Below the pieces are notes generated by a model. The model searched no databases, was not told the origin of the DNA, and saw only the letters and a list, made by a program, of their open reading frames with translations. This document shows, one piece after another, positions 41,130 through 58,189 of a stretch of 64,000 bases of DNA; position 1 is the stretch's first letter, and each line of letters starts with the position of its first letter. The DNA lies in contig CAVXKA010000002.1 in the NCBI GenBank assembly GCA_963762255.1, positions 1,344,001-1,408,000 of the forward strand, written 5' to 3'. Position numbers and translations under genes: made by a program. Source of the stretch: Candidatus Eiseniibacteriota bacterium. Lineage in GTDB: Bacteria > Eisenbacteria > RBG-16-71-46 > JABDJR01.

Positions 41130-41190
41130 GAGCGTGTGCTCCCCGTCCCTCACCGCCGGTACCGGAGCCGGCGGCGAAGGTTCATGGTCG

Positions 41191-42033
41191 TCATGCGTTG
41201 ATACCGGTCAGGTCGAGCATGTGGCCGCGGCAGCCTCGCCGCGAACAGATCTGAACGACGCCCCCACCCCGCACGATCATCGGAACCGTGGGCGCTCCGC
41301 AGTCGCCGCAGTCGCCGGCGCCGGTGAGGTGCGCGTTGCAGTGCGGGCAGAAGAAATCGACGACGGAGTCGGGCGGTATCTCGTGCTCCGATCGGATGGT
41401 GTAGGAACCGTAGAGGGCGGACAGGAGCAGCGCTCCGTGCTTCTCCCCGAAGGAAATCGTCACCCGGATGGACGGGTGCTCGTCGATGAGTTGGGCCGCG
41501 TCCATCAGGTTGTGATTGCAGCGCGCGCAGCTCACCTCGACCGGGAAGATGCGGGCGTCGGTCTTCACGTCGACTCGGTCGAGCCCTCCCCTGGTCTGAT
41601 CGAGGATCCCCGCCACCGCTCCGGGGGTGACGTTGGAGAAGTAGTGGCCGTCGACCACGACGATCGGGCCCAGAGCGCACCCGCCCAGACAGTTCTGGGT
41701 CTCGTAGGTGATCTCGCGGTCCTCGGTGGTCTCGCCGACCGGCACATCGAGCTGCCGCCGCAGCTCCTCGTCGATGCGCGGCGCGCCGCGAACGTGGCAG
41801 GCGGTGCCCATGCAGCACGTGAGCAGATGCTTGCCGCGCGGCTTCAGGCTGAACCAGCGGTAGAAGGTCGCCACGCCGTAGATATCCACGAGGGATCGCC
41901 CGGTCTTTTCGGAGACCGCGCGCAGCGACTCCTCGGGAAGGTAGGAGTACTTGCCCTGGATCTCCTCCAGAATGGCGATCAGTTCGCCCCGTTCGCCACG
42001 ATGCCGGTCGATGATGGTGTCGATCTCGCTCAT
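41191..42033 (-). CDS. NuoE/HydC-like [2Fe-2S] subunit with a Cys-rich C-terminal extension
   Basis: GVATFY, CMGTACHVRG and CLGGCALGP motifs; extension with CARC, CPHC, CGDC and CSRRGC; own GAGG RBS. Confidence 0.88.
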   Translation of the reverse strand: MSEIDTIIDRHRGERGELIAILEEIQGKYSYLPEESLRAVSEKTGRSLVDIYGVATFYRWFSLKPRGKHLLTCCMGTACHVRGAPRIDEELRRQLDVPVGETTEDREITYETQNCLGGCALGPIVVVDGHYFSNVTPGAVAGILDQTRGGLDRVDVKTDARIFPVEVSCARCNHNLMDAAQLIDEHPSIRVTISFGEKHGALLLSALYGSYTIRSEHEIPPDSVVDFFCPHCNAHLTGAGDCGDCGAPTVPMIVRGGGVVQICSRRGCRGHMLDLTGINA

Positions 42034-42089
42034 GGTCCATGCCTCGCAGGTGGTGACTCTTGGGCCGGGATCGGAGCCGCTGCGTTCGC

Positions 42090-42261
42090 TCCAAGCGTAG
42101 GAGGCGCAATGCCAGACTCCCCCCTCGGGCCGGGGGAGGATGCAGCTTCGGCTCTTCTCGCACGAGCCGCACAGGTCTTGGTGCGGGAGGGTGCCCCCGC
42201 TCCGATCTGAGCGGGGACCGCCGGGCAGGGCAGCCTCGCGCGTGTCGTCGTCGCCGGCCAT
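42090..42261 (-). CDS. Small Cys-rich protein (or an N-terminal domain fused in frame to NuoE)
   Basis: ATG 42261 with an AGGAG RBS; LCGSC...SC.LPRPEGGVWHC..Y motif; no stop before nuoE as sequenced. Confidence 0.5.
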
Positions 42262-42380
42262 CAGTGACTCCTAGGAACACTGGCCGCAACGCCACGCGGG
42301 GCATGGGGGGGGACCCCGTGAGCGCCTGGGATCGGTTGTCGAAGTGGGGCGGTTCGCTCCACCTCGTGCCCCCTTCCTCC

Positions 42381-42395
42381 GCAAGGCCCATGCCA
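42381..42395 (-). promoter_or_regulatory. Sigma54 (-24/-12) promoter of the oxidoreductase/glutamate-synthase operon
   Basis: TGGCATGGGCCTTGC on the minus strand fits TGGCAY-N5-TTGC with exact GG-N10-GC spacing. Confidence 0.8.
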
Positions 42396-42586
42396 GGAGC
42401 GGAAACCGTCCTTCCTTCAATTTTGCCGGAATGCAGTCTATCCACGCCAGAAGCGGAAAAAGGCCCATTAGCCTGTGCTGACGAGGCGTTTCTGGGTCCC
42501 GAGCGGGCAGCCGGCGAGGCTTAGAGGGAGGATATCGAAAACCCGGAATCGGAGCGTTTCTACCCGCTGGGGATATTCTACCCAGT

Positions 42587-44067: not shown

Positions 44068-45528
44068 CTAGCCGAGTCTCTCTCTGTCGAAGAAGTCCCG
44101 AAGCTGCTCCCAGGTCTGTTCGATCCTGTCGCCCTCGAACTCGATGAACTGCAGGCCGGCGAGGTTGCTGATCTCCCCCAGCCCCTTCTGCTTGAGCAGC
44201 GCCACCCGCTGGAAGCCGAGCTTTCCTTGGAAGAGGCCGGCCTCGTGGATGACGTTCTCTCTCGCCCGCAGTTCCCCGTCGCTGGTCTTGTCCTCCGCGG
44301 TGAGGACCAGGATGGCGAACTCCGCCTGCTCGAGCATGTCCTCCAGCACCGGGACGATGGCGTCGCCGACCCGGGACTGCGTCTCGTACTCGACCGTCTC
44401 CAAGTTGAGTTTCTTCTCGACGAATCGCGCCACCTGCGCCCACAGCGGGCTGCGCCCATGGCCGATGAACACCCGCCCCGAGGTCGAAGGGGTCTTGATC
44501 CAGCGCCGGAAGGCTTCACCTGAAGGTTGGAGTATGCCGTGGTGAATGGTCAGCAGGCCCAGATCCAGCAGGCGCGCCTCTCCAGGGTTCAGGTTCTGGC
44601 CCGCGGGGGAGTGTCGCCCCGAAGCGGCACGCAGGAGGCATTTCCGCTCCTGTACGTTCAGATTACGCCAGTAGGACCGATAGAGACCCTGCAGACCGCT
44701 GTTCCACCCGAGCAACTCCTCGATCACTTCCCCAAAGCACGTCTCCGTCGAGGTCCCCGTTCTCCGCGTCCGAATCCAGGCGTCGGCGGTGACCTGGAGA
44801 AAATAGGGCATGTCCCCGCCGATGCGTCGAATCGCATCCACCTCTTCTGCAGTCAAGTCGATCCCCACGCTCTTCGCCGGACCGGTGATCAGAGTCTCCG
44901 CTTCCGCGGTGGGCATCGGACCCAACACGATTGGGCTGGGGAGAAAGACATTGCAGAACTCGGAGACGTAGATCGGCTCCTCGGCACGGCAGAGCTCAAA
45001 GAGCGGGCGGAAGGAGGATGTCACCCAGGTCACCAACTCACTCGTCACCAGGGCGCGCAGGCCTCCGAAAAAGTCGAGATCGAATCGGTCGTGGCGAACC
45101 AGGGTCTCGAACTCGTCCAGCAGGATCACCAACCGACGGCCGTCGGCGACGGACTTGACCCATCTTTCGAATCCCACGTAATCCTCAATGGCGATATCGT
45201 CCGGTGGCGGGGCCTCGGGAATCACCTTCGTGACCGCGTTCGTCACAGCCTGACGGAACCGGATCGGGTCGATGACGTCGGCGAGAAGATCCACGTAGGC
45301 CACTGCCACTGGAGGATATCCGGCCCGAATGTCAGGCCGAGGAGCGCCCGAACCCGACATGAGCTGAAGGAAAGATGTCTTGCCCGCACGCCGCGCCCCG
45401 AGCACCTGCATCGAATCGGGGTACTTTCGAGAGATCCTCCTCAGGAAGAACGCTATCTGTTCCTGGCGCCCGTAGAAGTGGTCTGCATCGACTGGACGAC
45501 CCGCCACGTAGGGACTACCGGCGCTCAC
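44068..45528 (-). CDS. STAND-type P-loop ATPase fused to a C-terminal Cap12/Pycsar-type TIR domain
   Basis: SPY..G.PV...FYGR, Walker A GARRAGKTS, Walker B ILLDEFE and GDMPYFLQ; TIR motifs VFIGHG, FAILVLTAED, ARENVIHEAGLF.GKLG and SNLAG. Confidence 0.85.
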   Translation of the reverse strand: MSAGSPYVAGRPVDADHFYGRQEQIAFFLRRISRKYPDSMQVLGARRAGKTSFLQLMSGSGAPRPDIRAGYPPVAVAYVDLLADVIDPIRFRQAVTNAVTKVIPEAPPPDDIAIEDYVGFERWVKSVADGRRLVILLDEFETLVRHDRFDLDFFGGLRALVTSELVTWVTSSFRPLFELCRAEEPIYVSEFCNVFLPSPIVLGPMPTAEAETLITGPAKSVGIDLTAEEVDAIRRIGGDMPYFLQVTADAWIRTRRTGTSTETCFGEVIEELLGWNSGLQGLYRSYWRNLNVQERKCLLRAASGRHSPAGQNLNPGEARLLDLGLLTIHHGILQPSGEAFRRWIKTPSTSGRVFIGHGRSPLWAQVARFVEKKLNLETVEYETQSRVGDAIVPVLEDMLEQAEFAILVLTAEDKTSDGELRARENVIHEAGLFQGKLGFQRVALLKQKGLGEISNLAGLQFIEFEGDRIEQTWEQLRDFFDRERLG

Positions 45529-45534
45529 CGTGCG

Positions 45535-48500
45535 CTACCTCAGATCCTGATATCGCAGGATCCACAGACGCATCAGATCCACGGCAAACCTGTACTTCTT
45601 GAGTCCATCCCCGCCCTGCCGATCCGCCGTGATCAGGTGATGCAGAGCCAGACGATGCAGCGCCTTCACCCTCTGCTCTTCGCTGACTTCCTTCGTCACC
45701 GGCACCAGGATCTCGGATCCCGGAATCCAACGGTTCTGGGTCGCCCCGATCCGGGCCATAGTCCTCAGAACAAGGTGGGCGTCTTGCCCGACGTCCGTCC
45801 ACATTCGGTCCAATACCGCTCCGCCCCCGAATTCTAAGAACGTCCCACCGACTTCTCGAGATACTCGGGCCCGATCCAATACCCACACTTCTGGCTGTTC
45901 ATCTCCTCAACGCAGTAATCGCACAGTTGCTGAATCAGGTACGGGTGCCCTCCGGTCAGGCTGAGAATCCTATCGACCACCGCATCGTCATAGGTCACGC
46001 CCAGTACCTGGACCGGGGTCCGGATCAGGTCGTTTGCCTCCTTGGGCTCCAGGAACCCCACTTCTCGGTGATGTGCTACATTGAACAACTCGACCTTGTA
46101 CTTGAGGTCCATCTCCTCCAGTTCGCGGTGGCCGGCAAGAATGAAGGCCACCCCCTGATCCTCCTGCATGAGCGCCCGCAAGTAATAGAAGATATCCGCC
46201 TCATACTTCTTGTTCTTGACTCGCTCATGCAGACACTCAAACTCATCCAACATGATCAGGACGAGGCCCTTTCCTCTTCCTCCCATGGCATGAACCGCAC
46301 TCTCCAGAGTTCTATCAAACGCCGCCCTTGGTCCCTTCGTGAACTCCTCTGCAGGCGGCACCGTGCAAGAGAGTCCCCGTCCCCCGAGCGCCTTGTCAAC
46401 TTCTTCAGCCATTCTTGACATGAGCGCAGCCGTCGAATCGCCCAGAAGTTGCAGATCGAGAAACACCGGATAGACGGGAAACTGACGCCCCTCTCGAATG
46501 CGTTTCCCCAGCTGGCCGCTTTGCAATTGCCTGAGCACGGAGGTCTTACCAGTGTGCGATCCACCATGAAGTACGAGAGCCCCGCGTCCGGTCTTGCTGA
46601 ACAGTTTCGCCTCGATCCACTCGAAGATCTCTTCCCGCCCGTAGAAGAGGGGACTGTCTGCGGGGAGCGGTTTCGTGGTGATATAGGGACTGTCCACCTC
46701 CAGATAGACGCGGACCGCTTCATCAATCAGCTTGGACCAATCACCGAAGACACGGGTCAACATGGTCCGCTCGAGGAGGCTCAGGTCGGAGAGTTGATCC
46801 TCGGGGATCTTGAGGAGGTTGAGACATTCTCTCAGTTCGATGCGTCGGCTCGGATCGCGATCGTACTCGGCGAGGCGATCGCTGACTCGTTGCGCGACAG
46901 TCGTGTAACGCTCCCCTAGCTCACGGAGGAAGAACTCTCGCGCGGTGACTCGACTGATCACGGGCCCGGACCGCTGCAGAGCGGTTTGGATATCGCCAAG
47001 CCGGGATGACTTGAGCGCCACGGTGAGCGCACTCAGAAGATCCTTGCTGGGCCCATGGAGGTCACTGACAAGCTGATCGAGTACCCCCAGTTGGAATGCG
47101 GGATGGAGCAACCCGGCGTAAGTCCGCACGATGCGCGCTTTCACGGAGTCCTCGCGATCCACGATGGCGGCAGCACTGTCCAAGCTGTTTACGCCTTCCT
47201 CGTGGTCCTTCAGGAACCCATGCACGACTTCCACAACGGCGTCGTTGTTCGGGCTGGCGAGAACGTGGTCCGCAAGATTTCCCGACTCTACGAGGCGGGC
47301 GTTCTGTATGGAGATGGCGGCGCTGTTCGCGATCAACTCGAACGCCAACTCCTCCTGGCCGTTGAAATACGCGAATTCCTTGTCGGCGCCCTTCCCCTTG
47401 GTCTTCGTCTCCACCTTGAGCACGCCGACAAGTTCTTTCTGCTTTCCCTTCCCTCCCGCCAAGAGCGGGATTCCCATGAACGACTGGCACTTCCTCCCCT
47501 TGGCGAAGTTGTGTCTGTCAAAGGTTCCTCGGTGATGGGGATGGAGCGTCAGGTCGAGGTTACTTCTGGCGGTGAATTTCTCGCGTTTGACGGCAATCCA
47601 GACCGTCAGGCCGACCTTCTGGTCCTCCGTCACCGGCCGGTCGACGATGTCCTTGTCCGCCACCAGTTGGTACCGGCGCACTCTTGGGCCTCGAGTGGCC
47701 CATCCATAGGCCGCCCAGTGCGGCTGCACAAGCTCGTTCCCCTGTTTCAGGAAAAGCGCGCAGGCTTCGGCGTGGAACAGTTTGGCTGTGTCATGCACGA
47801 CCTCCTTGACAAGCTTCTGGACATCCAGCTTGCCACTCAGCATGTCTCGGATCGGTTCCATTGCTTTGTGGATGACCACATAGCGCTTGGCGTACTGCGT
47901 CTGCAAACGCTCGCTCGCCAGCGCGATTTCGTGGGCCAGAAGGTCCAGGCGCCTTTGCTGGACATCGCTGAAATCGCGGTCGTCTACAGTGCCTCGTACG
48001 AACACGTTCTCGACCTTCAACACCCCCGTGATGACTCCGCCGATCTGGAGGGGTACACCCAACCACGCGCCGCATTCCTGTTGCTTCTCGTAGTTGGATG
48101 AGTCGTAGAAGCCCTTGTGGTGGCAGTGTTCTTTGAGTTCATCCATGTTTCGAGCACGGAATTGTCTGCCGGTCGCGGCGACCCAGGCCGTGAGTCCGAC
48201 TCTCTCGTCATGGCTCAGGTGCACGCGCTTACAGTCCGCGGGAGAGCATGACCTGGTCCCCAGACAGTGTGCGACCTTCTCAGGTCCCGGCACCTCGTAG
48301 GAGCGGACCACCTTTCGCAGGACCTGCGATCCCCATCCCGCGCGTTGAGTCAGCGTCTTCTTGCTCTCGTCGATGAGGAAGATCGCTCCGGAATCCGCCT
48401 GGGTGGCACTGGCCGCGACGCGCACAACGATGTCCAGGAAGGCATCCAACTCTCCCTCGGTGGCAACCGCTTCCTCGATGACTTCTCGGGCCCACAGTGT

Positions 48501-49178
48501 GATCGCAGCGTCGGCGGATCTATCTCGTTCTTCCACGTAGTCAATGCAGCGGCCAGCCACTCGCGCCAGCGCCTCAAGCACGAGCTGATCCTTCACCGAG
48601 AACGGCTCGCACGGCTCCAGCCGTTCCGCCTTCATCGCGCCGATGATCTTCCCGCGCAGATTCCTCAACGGAACAGCGAGAAACGTACCCACCTGGTTAC
48701 CCGGTTCCGGTAGCTGGACTGGATCGTAGTCCCCTCTCTGATGGGGATGTTGCTTCAGCTCCGCGGGGGTCTTGGCAAGAAACGCCTTCCCGGTGGAGAT
48801 GACCCAGCCCGTTAACCCGAGCCTGTCCTCCTTGAGCGAAGGAGAGTCGGGCACGCCATCCGGGGGGAGAACGTGGCAAATGGCCTGATTGATGAAATGC
48901 TTCTGGTACCCGCTGGCTGCACGCATCGTGGCCGTCCCGTCCCCAGCCAATCCAGCGGTCTCGTCCACGATGTAGATCGCGCAGGCATCCACTTGAAGGA
49001 CAGCGCCAGGCCCGTCGACCTTGTCCGTGATCCGGGCGATCAGCGCATCCAGCTTCGCGCCGGCGGCCAGATCCGCGATGAGGAGTGACTGAAGGTCGGT
49101 CGAGAGCCGCAGGAGGTCCTGGGTCGCATCGGTTACGGGGGGTGCGGACGTCAGAGTGACGGTGTCGGGTGAAGGCAT
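45535..49178 (-). CDS. Triple-GAF protein with a STAND-type ATPase and C-terminal winged helix; -1 frameshift at ~45845
   Basis: Three GAF repeats (GLT.W...., L.VPL/IPL, G..K.E); SPY...P....LFYGREE, Walker A GGSHTGKTS, Walker B IMLDEFE and TGGHPYLIQ. The natural C-terminus (YRFAVDLMRLWI) lies in the 45535-45888 frame. Alternative start at 49190. Confidence 0.8.
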
Positions 49179-49217
49179 GCGGCCTCCCATGCGAAGTGCA
49201 AGCCGGAGTGCTGCCGG

Positions 49218-49661
49218 CTACTTGGTTTTTCGGGGCGATCGCTCCATCTCGCGCAGCACGCAATCGGTGAGAACCTCGGTCTCGGCCACGTCATGCGCGG
49301 TCAATTGCTCGATGAACTGGCTGGTGTCGGACCGCAGTTTGGCCAGGGAACCGCTCATGAGAGCGTTGCAGTCCCGGATGAGACCGTTGAGGCCTTCCAT
49401 CAGGATCCGGTGTTCCCGGAGAAGCCCGTCCACGCGCTCGGTGTGTTGCGGCGCGTGACTTTCGATAATGGCGTAGAGCCCCTCGTCCCCTTCTTCGCGA
49501 TTGAAGTGATTCTCGAACTGGCGATGCAGATCCTCCAGCACGATCAACATCACGTTCGGATCGGTCATGGCCTGCAGGCGCTCCACCGTCGCTCGCATCT
49601 CGAGGTGTTCCTCGGTGATCTTGGATTCGAGACTGCGCACGTCGATGCCCGGGGTTCCCAT
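49218..49661 (-). CDS. Hemerythrin-domain protein
   Basis: EEH, HF.REE, REH and HD..E motifs spaced as in HHE four-helix bundles. Confidence 0.8.
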   Translation of the reverse strand: MGTPGIDVRSLESKITEEHLEMRATVERLQAMTDPNVMLIVLEDLHRQFENHFNREEGDEGLYAIIESHAPQHTERVDGLLREHRILMEGLNGLIRDCNALMSGSLAKLRSDTSQFIEQLTAHDVAETEVLTDCVLREMERSPRKTK

Positions 49662-49826
49662 GACGAGGCTCCTTGTTCCGCACGATTCTCCGGTGCTGCC
49701 GGCGGCGGCTCGGCCGGTCGGCCGACCAAGGCTCCATGCTCGCAGATGCAGGGGCACCGATTCCATGCAAAACAGGGCGGCGCGCGTCGCGGATCAATAA
49801 GCTACTGATTGCGTCGTCTATCCGCG

Positions 49827-52436
<2,610 letters not shown>

Positions 52437-55897: not shown

Positions 55898-58189
55898 ATG
55901 AACTCATTCCTCTTCCTGGCCACGCTGAACCTCGCCCTGGGGGGCCTGGTGTTTCTGCTCGGGCTCGTGATCCTGCGCGAGAACCCCTGGCAGAAGCTGA
56001 ACCGCATCGTCGCCTTCATGCTCTTCTTCGGCGGGCTGGGATCGGTGCTGGCGGGGCTCGGCTTCCTGGCCGTGCGGCCGTCGCTCCCCCAGGCGACCTC
56101 GGCGCAGGGGTCGCTCGGTCACTTCTCGTATCTCTGGGAGTTCTTCTTCCCCACGCTCCTCCTCTTCGCGAGCTACTTCCCGACCGAGCGCCCGTTCACC
56201 CGCAAGATCAGGGGCTTCGACATCCTGGTCTACATACCCCACGCCTTCCATTTCGTGCTGCTCCTGGGCATCGCGATCGTGGGGGCGCGAGCGTCCCTGC
56301 CCGAGCTGAACGCGCCGTCGGTGCTGCGGCCGTTCGTGAGCCTGGGAGGCCTGCTCGCGGGGTTCTTCCTGGCCGTCCACACCGCGCTCTTCTCGCTGGT
56401 GAACCTGGGCTACGGCGTGGCGACGGCGATCCTGCTCGTGCAGAGTTCCCGTAGGGCGCGGGTGCCCCGGCTCAGGCGGCAGCTCCGCGTGATCGGCGTC
56501 GGGCTCATCCTCTGCCTCATCTTCTACACGGCGGCCACATCGATCCCCACGCTCCTGAACCAGTCCATACCCGAGTGGATGCGCGCGATTCTTATCATCG
56601 CGGCGCTGACCGCCGCATCCGGTTCCATCGCCTATTCGATGGTGCGGTACAAGTTTCTGGACACGAAGCTCCTCGCCCGTCGCGGCATCCTCTACGCGGT
56701 GGCTTCGGCGGTGATGGTCGGCCTCTATCTCGGGGTGGCCGACGAGCTGAACCGCCTCGTCGGCGGGTTCATCGGCGTCGACCCGCGCGTCTTCCAGCCC
56801 GTGTTCCTTGTCATCGGGCTCATTCTCTTCCAGCCTGCGATCTCGAAGCTGGAGGATATGCTGGACCGGCTTCTCCTGCGCGATCCGAGCGACTACCGCA
56901 ACATCCTCAAGCGTCTGGGACGCGAACTTCTCACCACCATCGATCTCGACGATATGCTCTCGCAGTCCATCCGCACCGTCGCCGAGGCCCTGATGCTGCG
57001 CAACGCCCATGTGGTCGCTCTCGCCCGCGAGGGTCCCCTGGTGGTGACGGGGTCGGGGAAGCAGCCGGAGGAAGAGGATCCGGGCACGCTCGCCGCTCTG
57101 CTGAACCGTCTGGACCCGGGGATCGAGAGCTTCCGGCTCTACGGTCCGGTCGAGGAGATGGAGCGCGCCGACCGCTCCTATTTCGTCAACCACTTCCAGG
57201 CATCGCTCGTGATCCCGCTGCGCACGAAGGGCGAGACGGTGGGAGCGCTCCTCCTCGGAGACAAGGTCACCGGGACCGACTACACCTCGGAGGACGTGAA
57301 CCTCCTCTCCGCGCTGGCGGCGCAGATGTCGATTTCCGTACAAAACGGCTTGCTGCTGCGCGATCGCGTGGCGGTCGTGCGCATGGAAGAGGAGCTGAAC
57401 CTCGCACGGCGCATCCAGAAAAGCTTCCTTCCATCGCAGTTTCCGACCATGACGCATCTCGACGTGCACGCGCTCACCCATCCATCCCGCCAGGTGGGAG
57501 GAGATCTCTACGATCTCGTCGCCGTGGAGGACGGCGCGTACTTCCTCGCCATCGCCGACGTGTCGGGGAAAGGCGTGCCCGCCGCGCTCTTGAGTTCGAT
57601 GATCCAGGCGTCGCTGCGCACGCAAGCCGACGGGAGACTGTCCGTCTCCTCGATCGTCGACAAGATCAACGGCCTCATCTACCGGAGCACGACCCCGGAA
57701 CAGTTCGCGACGTTCTTTCTGGCCCGCGTCGAGGAGCGGACGCTGCGCATGTCGTTCTCCAACGCCGGGCACAACTATCCGGTGCTCTGCCGCAAGGGGG
57801 GTGGCCACCTCTTCCTGGAGCGAGGCGGGATGCTGCTCGGGATCTTCGACGACGCTCGCTTCGAGGAGGAGTCCGTGCAACTCGCGCCCGGCGATCGTGT
57901 CGTGCTCTATACGGACGGCATTACCGAGGCAATGAATCGCGAGGAGGAGGAGTTCGGGGAAGAGCGGCTCTGCACGCTTGTCCGCGGCCTGCCGTCGAGC
58001 CTCTCGGCGCGCGAGGTCACGGAGAAGATCGTGACCGATCTCCACGCGTTCCTGGACGGCGAGGAGCCGCAGGACGATGTGACGGTGATGGTGCTGCGCG
58101 TCTTGGAGCCCGCGCTCGCGGCGCAGGTCCACGAGGGCGAGGCGGTGGCGGTCGGGGCCCTCGGCGGGGCCCCGACCGCGGCGGTCTAG
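55898..58189 (+). CDS. Membrane-anchored GAF + SpoIIE/RsbU-type PP2C phosphatase
   Basis: Multi-TM N-terminus and GAF (IPL...VGALLLG.K), then ARRIQ, VGGDLYD, IADVSGKG, NAGH, YTDGITEA and DDVT motifs. Confidence 0.92.
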   Translation: MNSFLFLATLNLALGGLVFLLGLVILRENPWQKLNRIVAFMLFFGGLGSVLAGLGFLAVRPSLPQATSAQGSLGHFSYLWEFFFPTLLLFASYFPTERPFTRKIRGFDILVYIPHAFHFVLLLGIAIVGARASLPELNAPSVLRPFVSLGGLLAGFFLAVHTALFSLVNLGYGVATAILLVQSSRRARVPRLRRQLRVIGVGLILCLIFYTAATSIPTLLNQSIPEWMRAILIIAALTAASGSIAYSMVRYKFLDTKLLARRGILYAVASAVMVGLYLGVADELNRLVGGFIGVDPRVFQPVFLVIGLILFQPAISKLEDMLDRLLLRDPSDYRNILKRLGRELLTTIDLDDMLSQSIRTVAEALMLRNAHVVALAREGPLVVTGSGKQPEEEDPGTLAALLNRLDPGIESFRLYGPVEEMERADRSYFVNHFQASLVIPLRTKGETVGALLLGDKVTGTDYTSEDVNLLSALAAQMSISVQNGLLLRDRVAVVRMEEELNLARRIQKSFLPSQFPTMTHLDVHALTHPSRQVGGDLYDLVAVEDGAYFLAIADVSGKGVPAALLSSMIQASLRTQADGRLSVSSIVDKINGLIYRSTTPEQFATFFLARVEERTLRMSFSNAGHNYPVLCRKGGGHLFLERGGMLLGIFDDARFEEESVQLAPGDRVVLYTDGITEAMNREEEEFGEERLCTLVRGLPSSLSAREVTEKIVTDLHAFLDGEEPQDDVTVMVLRVLEPALAAQVHEGEAVAVGALGGAPTAAV

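Follow-up and report, generated by a model that had tools for sequence, protein, structure and literature searches.

Paired STAND ATPases carrying a triple-GAF sensor and a Cap12-type TIR effector as a candidate two-gene conflict module in an Eisenbacteria genome

Two adjacent ATPase genes lie on the minus strand of a 64,000-nucleotide stretch of a Candidatus Eiseniibacteriota genome (assembly GCA_963762255.1, contig CAVXKA010000002.1, positions 1,344,001 to 1,408,000; hereafter the window), and they raise the question of whether a bacterium divides sensing and execution between two proteins of one STAND family. Gene A, encoded directly upstream of gene B, carries three GAF domains, and gene B carries a TIR domain. 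The innate immune systems of plants and animals make central use of a split between sensor and helper ATPases of the nucleotide-binding leucine-rich repeat (NLR) type; for bacteria such a split has been predicted from sequence only. We consider that genes A and B probably form a two-gene conflict module, most likely an anti-phage one acting by abortive infection, in which the paralogous STAND ATPases serve as a sensor-executor pair. We put the probability of this reading at about 0.6.

Gene B (44068..45528, GTG start at 45528) encodes a protein of 486 residues. The ATPase module (residues 1-345, 44494..45528) matches Pfam nSTAND2 (E 1.8e-10) and nSTAND1 (E 2.9e-9) and contains the Walker A motif GARRAGKTS with K50 (45373-45399) and the Walker B motif LLDEFE (45106-45123). 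In the AlphaFold2 (AF2) model, the predicted local distance difference test (pLDDT) score is above 90 for most of residues 11-345. A Foldseek search with this part returned the archaeal ATPase_2 proteins 2qen (E 8.7e-11) and 2fna, ORC1/Cdc6, the plant NLRs NRC3, Sr35, NRC4 and ZAR1, and also Avs3 and MuB. The model and these matches indicate an ORC-Cdc6-like STAND/AAA+ fold consisting of a nucleotide-binding domain (NBD), a helical domain and a winged helix. The remainder of the protein (residues 352-486 and the stop codon, 44068..44475) is a TIR domain of the Cap12/Pycsar type. Residues 352-465 match PF10137 (CAP12-PCTIR_TIR) with E 1.8e-24 and 86.5 bits, well above the curated cut-off of 24.7, and the alignment spans profile positions 1-118 of 119. 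A preliminary description of the locus, made by reading its letters, had noted that the TIR domain keeps the glutamate of an RxNVxxExG motif, and this is found as RENVIHEAG (residues 423-431, 44236-44262). In a phmmer comparison with Cap12 (9lmq, E 3e-4) the motif is aligned to RDNVVFEFG. The spacing of R423, N425 and E429 is identical to that of R78, N80 and E84 of SfSTING, where R78/N80 are described as contacting the substrate and E84 as catalytic (PMC9402430). E429 (44242-44244) is the putative catalytic residue by alignment and spacing to known TIRs, and we infer from the sequence that this TIR domain would be an NADase. The TIR part of the model was of low confidence, with that TIR present in 2 of the 82 alignment rows, and was not used. 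No sensor domain was recognized by Pfam in gene B.

The main open reading frame (ORF) of gene A (45834..49190) encodes 1118 residues, in which three GAF domains are connected through a helical linker to an nSTAND ATPase. The start given for it earlier, 49178, is the second methionine of the ORF that opens at 49190; it is also the start of the public gene call P0122, which has 1114 residues. The triple GAF module (residues 20-640, 47271..49133) matches PF01590 in three stretches (E 2.2e-32). Between the GAFs and the ATPase lies a linker of about 195 residues (641-835, 46686..47270) with no Pfam match, whose identity to three homologs from the survey below (L008, L011 and L087) is 23-32%. The ATPase module (residues 836-1118, 45837..46685) contains the Walker A motif GGSHTGKTS with K882 (46539-46565) and the Walker B motif MLDEFE (46236-46253), and its residues 844-1089 match nSTAND1 (E 6.2e-9), AAA_22, AAA_16 and ATPase_2. 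The triple GAF, the linker and the P-loop ATPase are thus as the preliminary description had them; the winged helix that it placed last is a label from position and from likeness to the gene B model, with no Pfam match. No effector domain was recognized by Pfam in gene A. The two ATPases are 32% identical (E 1.6e-13), and the motifs said to be common to them (SPLFYGR/DHFYGR, GKTS, LDEFE and G.PY..Q) are all present, in agreement with the assignment of both to one family.

What might the GAFs read? The AF2 model of the triple GAF module (pLDDT 88.1, predicted template modelling score 0.82) finds its best fold matches in tandem GAFs that bind cyclic nucleotide monophosphates (cNMPs), with CyaB2 (1ykd, E 1.3e-12) and PDE2A/PDE5/PDE6 at the top and phytochromes ranking below. 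These matches (E 1e-12 to 1e-10, about 15% identity) are at the level of fold only. The GAF pockets that contact cNMPs carry an NKFDE-type motif. The module of gene A has three GAFs instead of two, and its family shows an invariant pattern of its own, H-x-H-H-x-G-x-x-D plus Cys, with invariant His/Cys positions in each GAF (e.g. H355/H357/H358 and H550/H552). The invariant residues argue for a fixed small molecule as the probable ligand or cofactor. The triple-GAF module counts at least 134 relatives. Identity to it is 33-63% among the 120 of them that were listed, mostly at least 45% over about 96% of the module, and most are proteins of about 1165-1260 residues with STAND matches. The triple GAF appears to behave as an autonomous, transferable sensor cassette. 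A search of the ESM Atlas returned generic GAF clusters only. Six relatives (P0155, P0159, P0178, P0223, P0239 and P0241) have the triple GAF, at 38-58% identity, on a histidine kinase/receiver, on AAA_15/21, on AAA_23 (ABC/SMC-like) or on EAD1.

The arrangement of the two genes recurs across phyla. A survey of one genome per species, scanned with an alignment of gene B relatives, yielded 80 loci, mostly from metagenome-assembled genomes (MAGs) of Chloroflexota, the closest being that of a Myxococcales MAG. ATPase ORFs were typed as A-like or B-like according to the better-matching window module. At 63 of the 80 loci, the gene that immediately precedes B, in the same orientation, is an A gene; among the other 17 loci, several have their B gene close to the end of a contig. 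The 72 adjacent ATPase pairs comprise 64 that run A-then-B, seven that run B-then-A and one B-B pair. The gap is at most 208 bp in 60 of the 64 A-to-B pairs, and 26 of them overlap, mostly by 4 bp. The full triple-GAF form of gene A occurs at six genome loci from five groups as judged by record title (Myxococcales, Anaerolineales/Anaerolineaceae, Bryobacterales, KSB1 and Chloroflexia), each time with a B gene downstream. A scan of metagenomes with the GAF module gave 41 loci, and the analysis covered the 21 strong ones (L087-L107). The triple GAF is joined to an A-type ATPase at 13 of the 21, and a B-type ATPase gene follows in all 11 triple-GAF STAND loci that have downstream sequence. The co-occurrence of the two genes on which the preliminary description had staked its proposal is therefore borne out in both collections. 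No third gene is common to the seven GAF-type loci.

Around this paired core the ends of both proteins change. The A proteins begin with TCAD9 (kinase-like) and NUDIX in 25 of 71 cases, which are about 1400 residues long; the triple GAF is found in five intact proteins and a broken one (L010), and the other N-termini include HEAT/NACHT, TPR and FGE-sulfatase. The domains added to the 82 B proteins are EAD7 (28), Pkinase (8), Trans_reg_C (7), EAD1 (3), Cap12-type TIR (2, the window and L007), TIR_2 (2), HD (1) and HEPN (1). The partner of a triple-GAF protein carries a Cap12-type TIR in the window, L007 and L102, a TIR_2 in L010, L011, L089 and L092, and a C-terminal domain with no Pfam match in L008; in L087 (407 residues) it has no added domain that Pfam recognizes. 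Such exchange of ends around a fixed pair of ATPases is the signature of conflict systems. Many other partners of triple-GAF proteins lack a TIR; at their N-terminus they carry instead 90-165 residues that Pfam does not match (L054:7629-9038, L060:7635-9074, L088:4275-5786, L093:6509-7771, L094, L096, L100, L101 and L104), which may be an uncharacterized effector or adaptor. The commonest form in Chloroflexota (L012-L056, e.g. L014:3658-7875 followed by L014:7995-9290) is a 1400-residue A protein with TCAD9, NUDIX and ATPase, then a B protein that ends in EAD7. The domain content of this form implies a putative further effector tagged with EAD7 and encoded elsewhere.

A possible mechanism can be drawn from these architectures, in which the hetero-oligomerization, the nature of the ligand, the NADase activity and the immune role are what we infer. 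A would be an autoinhibited sensor, the triple GAF of which reads a small-molecule cue. Binding of the ligand to the GAFs, or its release from them, would relieve the autoinhibition of the A ATPase. ATP-bound A would nucleate a ring or filament in which A and B are mixed, joined by the NBD-helical-winged-helix modules that both proteins have, whereby the TIR domains of B would be clustered and composite active sites would form. NAD+ would then be hydrolyzed and growth would halt. In a more specific version, which we offer tentatively, the pair is a counterpart of NAIP-NLRC4 and other sensor-helper systems that is triggered by a small molecule (an infection or damage metabolite) and nucleates the ATP-dependent co-polymerization of an effector STAND, with both subunits catalytically competent. 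If true, this would be a bacterial NLR-like immunity gated by metabolites rather than phage proteins. The pair offers a compact two-gene test case, with the intact cognate pairs L007 and L087, mutational targets in gene A (K882) and gene B (K50, E429), and a sensor expected to bind a defined small molecule; the identity of the ligand would show which cue is read by a widespread module, some relatives of which are coupled to histidine kinases.

Gene A is broken in the assembly, which weighs against a working module. The one public read run that was found contained 0.09 of the sampled words, and its contigs did not extend over 45416-45946. The frame is lost about 100 codons from the end of the gene, where the main ORF halts at a TAG (45834-45836). 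A second frame, the ORF 45535-45888 with its stop at 45535-45537, encodes 117 residues that align to the C-termini of full-length A homologs and share 24-32% identity (tblastn) with those of L007, L008, L011 and L087. In L007, L008 and L011, a single continuous frame runs through from the ATPase to the C-terminal part. Alignment to the homologs shows that the first frame tracks them to 'EYLEKSV' and the second from 'GGGAVLDRMW', and that the break is a net loss of 1 nucleotide at about 45837-45850. The two frames overlap at 45834..45888, and the winged-helix-like C-terminal part occupies 45535..45833 in the second. The 6-bp gap reported between the genes (45529..45534, from the stop of A to the GTG of B) is valid only across the frameshift, because the end of gene A lies in the second frame; it does not apply to the main ORF. 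The preliminary description implied as much when it spoke of a repaired pair.

The frequency of such breaks was estimated with G001, a genome of the same genus. Among 194 long ORFs from 21 stretches of G001 with a high GC content at third codon positions (GC3), 131 have a match of at least 70% identity in the window's genome. Nine of these 131 conserved ORFs are frame-split there, and 12 junctions were counted in about 173 kb, which corresponds to about 0.25 error breaks expected per 3.66-kb gene. The window's assembly seems to be rich in single-base indels, and every 'pseudogene' called in it therefore requires read-level confirmation. Because frame breaks are this common, the break in gene A is probably an assembly artefact, and the locus is for that reason probably intact in the organism. 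The alternative is that the break is real and that the locus is a decaying remnant, with a sensor lacking its winged-helix end and a pair that does not function in the organism. Inactivation is frequent among toxic defence genes, the break is present both in the assembly and in the 1114-residue public gene call, and no long homopolymer precedes the premature TAG. We nevertheless regard this alternative as unlikely, given the error rate of the assembly, two frames that are otherwise open and homolog-like right up to the junction, and an intact gene B. Other frame-split positions in the window's genome are C1:220064-220066, C2:965990-965995 and C2:230177-230180, and the triple-GAF A gene of the Bryobacterales MAG (L010:227-3834) is spread over at least four frames, probably by assembly indels too. 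The word GAACG/CGTTC was seen at 5 of the 12 junctions against 1.5 expected, but this was a post hoc observation, other 5-mers were equally enriched, and the word was rejected as evidence.

Several further observations speak against an immune module. The GAFs are the best-conserved part of gene A, with 47-57% identity, where the ATPase reaches 32-50% and the C-terminus 24-30%; this is the reverse of what arms-race sensors show and so weighs against the immune reading. The triple GAF is joined to HATPase_c, the histidine kinase domain, in 16 of the 120 listed relatives. B outputs are DNA-binding in 7/82 and protein kinases in 8/82, which would equally suit signalling. The neighbours of the pair are ClpB, a hemerythrin, a sigma-54 response regulator and redox enzymes, outside any defence island; neither an integrase nor a tRNA was detected around it, and a scan of viral contigs returned no relatives. 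PADLOC-DB 2.0.0 has no match to gene A and only TIR-domain matches to gene B, and a literature search found no experiment on any member of the paired-STAND family. The absence of an A-B fusion among 14 longer relatives is weak evidence in the same direction.

Many of these points can be accommodated by paired-STAND signalling of a non-immune kind, in which the triple GAF would read a physiological metabolite (a cyclic nucleotide, for instance, or a cue of stress or redox state) and the TIR would make a signalling nucleotide or adjust NAD+ in dormancy or development, as one output of the wider family next to protein kinases and DNA-binding domains. Those other outputs keep this account alive, and the histidine kinase fusions (with or without a receiver), the strong conservation of the sensor and the housekeeping neighbourhood agree with it. 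We hold it to be quite unlikely all the same, since the partners of the triple-GAF proteins bear TIRs of the Cap12 and TIR_2 types and small domains with no Pfam match, and the distribution of the pair is patchy and its composition foreign. The family as a whole bears EAD7/EAD1, HD and HEPN, which are named as hallmarks of conflict systems (Kaur et al. 2020, PMC7159879; Kaur et al. 2021, PMC8195603).

The sensor-executor reading supposes that both ATPases work and that they assemble with each other. The Walker A lysine is kept in 70 of 71 A modules and 76 of 81 B modules, and the Walker B D-E is near-invariant in both. An arginine, a candidate arginine finger, stands at the column of gene B R158 in 66/71 A and 80/81 B modules. 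Four B genes have the Walker A lysine changed to Asn or Arg (L074:9155-10507, L076:4197-5540, L078:9155-10507 and L085:2934-5210), and their A partners carry NACHT and HEAT repeats before the nSTAND; these four are perhaps examples of the pairs of one active and one inactive STAND that Kaur et al. 2021 described. A complex prediction for the A and B modules of L007, with our own 49-row alignments as input, gave an ipSAE interface score of 0.54 (runs 0.52, 0.54 and 0.55) against 0.08 for the best control, with a partner pLDDT of 71 and at least 83% of contacts agreeing between runs. In the calibration of the method, 58 of 80 solved complexes attained the mark, as did 2 of 110 mismatches; of these, 7 of the solved complexes and both mismatches had scores of up to 0.60. 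Because STAND rings have already been solved, the pass may derive from likeness to them. The prediction thus lends weak support to a physical co-assembly of A and B. Of the earlier proposal that sensing and execution are split across two co-assembling ATPases, the split itself is clear, with a sensor in gene A only and an effector in gene B only, and the co-assembly is weakly supported.

Another reading is a guard-type arrangement as in the plant pair RGA5/RGA4: B would be auto-active, A would restrain it, and the cue or the loss of A would free B. The synteny of the two genes and the co-variation described next fit restraint equally well, and 13 of the 71 A proteins are bare ATPases with no sensor, as would suit a regulator. 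The Walker A/B motifs and the R158-column arginine in both partners suggest, in contrast, a joint ATP-driven assembly. A real break in gene A would also leave B unrestrained and toxic, yet B is intact, a weak argument given that the break is probably an artefact. We consider the guard model improbable, and more so than signalling.

Genes A and B appear to have a common history. In a tree, the A and B modules are split by one branch (SH-aLRT 99), a partly circular result, as the labels were set by the higher-scoring query; the order of the genes was observed independently of these labels. Both A and B of the window cluster with their counterparts in L007 and L008. The pairwise-identity matrices of 49 cognate A/B pairs correlate with r = 0.916, a value reached in none of 2000 permutations, and this co-variation fits the inheritance and evolution of A and B as a unit. 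That two independent single-gene STAND systems became neighbours by chance, as the complete ATPase module in each protein might allow, is scarcely credible in view of this Mantel correlation, the A-then-B order in 64/72 adjacent ATPase pairs with their 4-bp overlaps, the pairing of triple-GAF loci in 11/11 and 6/6 cases, and the lack of an effector in gene A and of a sensor in gene B.

How does the proposed sensor-executor pair relate to known systems? Its closest counterpart is the mobile two-gene operon of Kaur et al. 2021 (eLife 10:e70394; PMC8195603), in which both genes contain nSTAND2 modules and the products are predicted to form a toroidal hetero-multimer. In that account, the effector-bearing partner has eroded NTP-binding motifs, the effectors are mostly GT4 or HEPN, an arginine is conserved in both partners, and the family lies near the base of the STAND clade. 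The pair of the window likewise consists of two STAND genes of one family with a variable effector on one partner; gene B and 72 of the 82 B-type proteins match Pfam nSTAND2, and the pair is likewise recurrent and mobile, with a patchy distribution, and in the window it is lower in GC than its flanks and has no counterpart at the syntenic site of G001. The window pair differs from the operon of Kaur et al. in keeping Walker A/B in both partners (4 of 81 B modules are eroded) and in having a Cap12-type TIR as effector and a triple GAF as sensor. The words 'GAF' and 'Cap12' occur zero times in the main text of Kaur et al. 2021, the source data of which may list such variants. In Kaur et al. 2020 (PMC7159879), GAF is listed among the nucleotide-binding domains of ternary systems. 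The preliminary description did not recognize the architecture as a named system; its class had already been predicted by Kaur et al. 2021. The pair fits this predicted class by its domain content, with the triple-GAF sensor, the Cap12-type TIR and two active-looking ATPases as probable novelties.

In the paired NLRs of animals and plants, NAIP-NLRC4, the NRC network and RGA5/RGA4, a sensor and an executor STAND of one family act together, and we propose a similar co-assembly here. The ATPase model of gene B matches the NB-ARC domains of NRC3, NRC4, Sr35 and ZAR1 (Foldseek E 8e-8 to 5e-6). The analogy is nonetheless one of logic only: the nSTAND fold ranks closer to archaeal ATPase_2 and ORC/Cdc6, and the input of the window pair is a GAF module, not leucine-rich repeats or integrated decoys. 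Avs and bNACHT proteins are likewise built on a STAND ATPase core, and oligomerization switches on their effector; Avs3 (8dgc) is among the fold matches of gene B. However, those systems combine effector, NTPase and repeat sensor in one polypeptide that recognizes phage proteins, whereas the functions of the window pair are divided over two genes and its sensor is a conserved domain of small-molecule type.

The TIR domain resembles that of Cap12, the TIR-STING protein of the cyclic-oligonucleotide-based antiphage signalling system (CBASS), and that of PycTIR from the pyrimidine cyclase system for antiphage resistance (Pycsar). In addition to the PF10137 and 9lmq matches, PADLOC PycTIR matches at E 2.8e-15, and the R/N/E motif is as in SfSTING, with an oligomerization-dependent activity expected. 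Unlike Cap12 and PycTIR, the TIR protein of the window has no STING, SAVED or cNMP-binding domain, and its scores with the NCBIfam Cap12 equivalogs, 40 and 30 bits, stay below the cut-offs of 450. No CD-NTase or Pycsar cyclase is encoded in the operon or nearby, and the seven GAF-type loci have no conserved third gene. The absence of a nearby cyclase stated in the preliminary description was upheld by searches of the whole genome (93.6% complete), which returned zero SMODS matches and a single PF00211 match, a class III cyclase about 187 kb from the pair. The genome contains one PF10137 TIR. A check against PADLOC-DB 2.0.0, suggested earlier, gave no whole-system match and no STAND-system match for the pair; the TIR domain of gene B alone was matched, as in PDC-S35, which covers gene B residues 345-465 with profile positions 113-237 of 264 and does not match gene A.

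The pair stands out from its surroundings in composition. Its GC content is 0.608, as compared with 0.663-0.677 in the flanks, and its GC3 is 0.74-0.80, as compared with 0.88-0.91 for the ClpB, NtrC and Nuo51 genes; the spot count of 26/60 G+C at 46201-46260 given earlier is exact. In G001, the order of ClpB, hemerythrin and NtrC is retained with no A and B pair at the syntenic site. Gene B relatives were found in none of seven same-family genomes, and the distribution of the pair is patchy. The lower GC and GC3 and the absence from the syntenic site in G001 suggest that the pair is an insert gained by lateral transfer. The corresponding interval of G001 (L130:9956-13086, about 3.1 kb, GC 0.70-0.75) contains other cargo, namely a beta-ketoacyl-synthase-like gene (L130:11368-13059) and one unassigned ORF, and the hemerythrin-NtrC interval thus differs between species. 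A promoter and terminator scan around the pair gave signals no better than those of shuffled sequences.

The immediate neighbours in the window are the hemerythrin (49218-49766) and ClpB (49827-52436) on one side and the NtrC-type sigma-54 response regulator (42587 to about 43930) on the other. About 7 kb from the pair, a protein of 763 residues with a GAF and a SpoIIE/PP2C phosphatase domain is encoded on the plus strand (55898-58189); its GAF is unrelated to the triple-GAF module, and it resembles an ordinary regulator. An ORF of 431 residues on the minus strand (41150-42445), with no Pfam match and 59% identity to its counterpart in G001, keeps its position between the NtrC-type regulator and a Nuo51/GltD-like oxidoreductase in both the window and G001.

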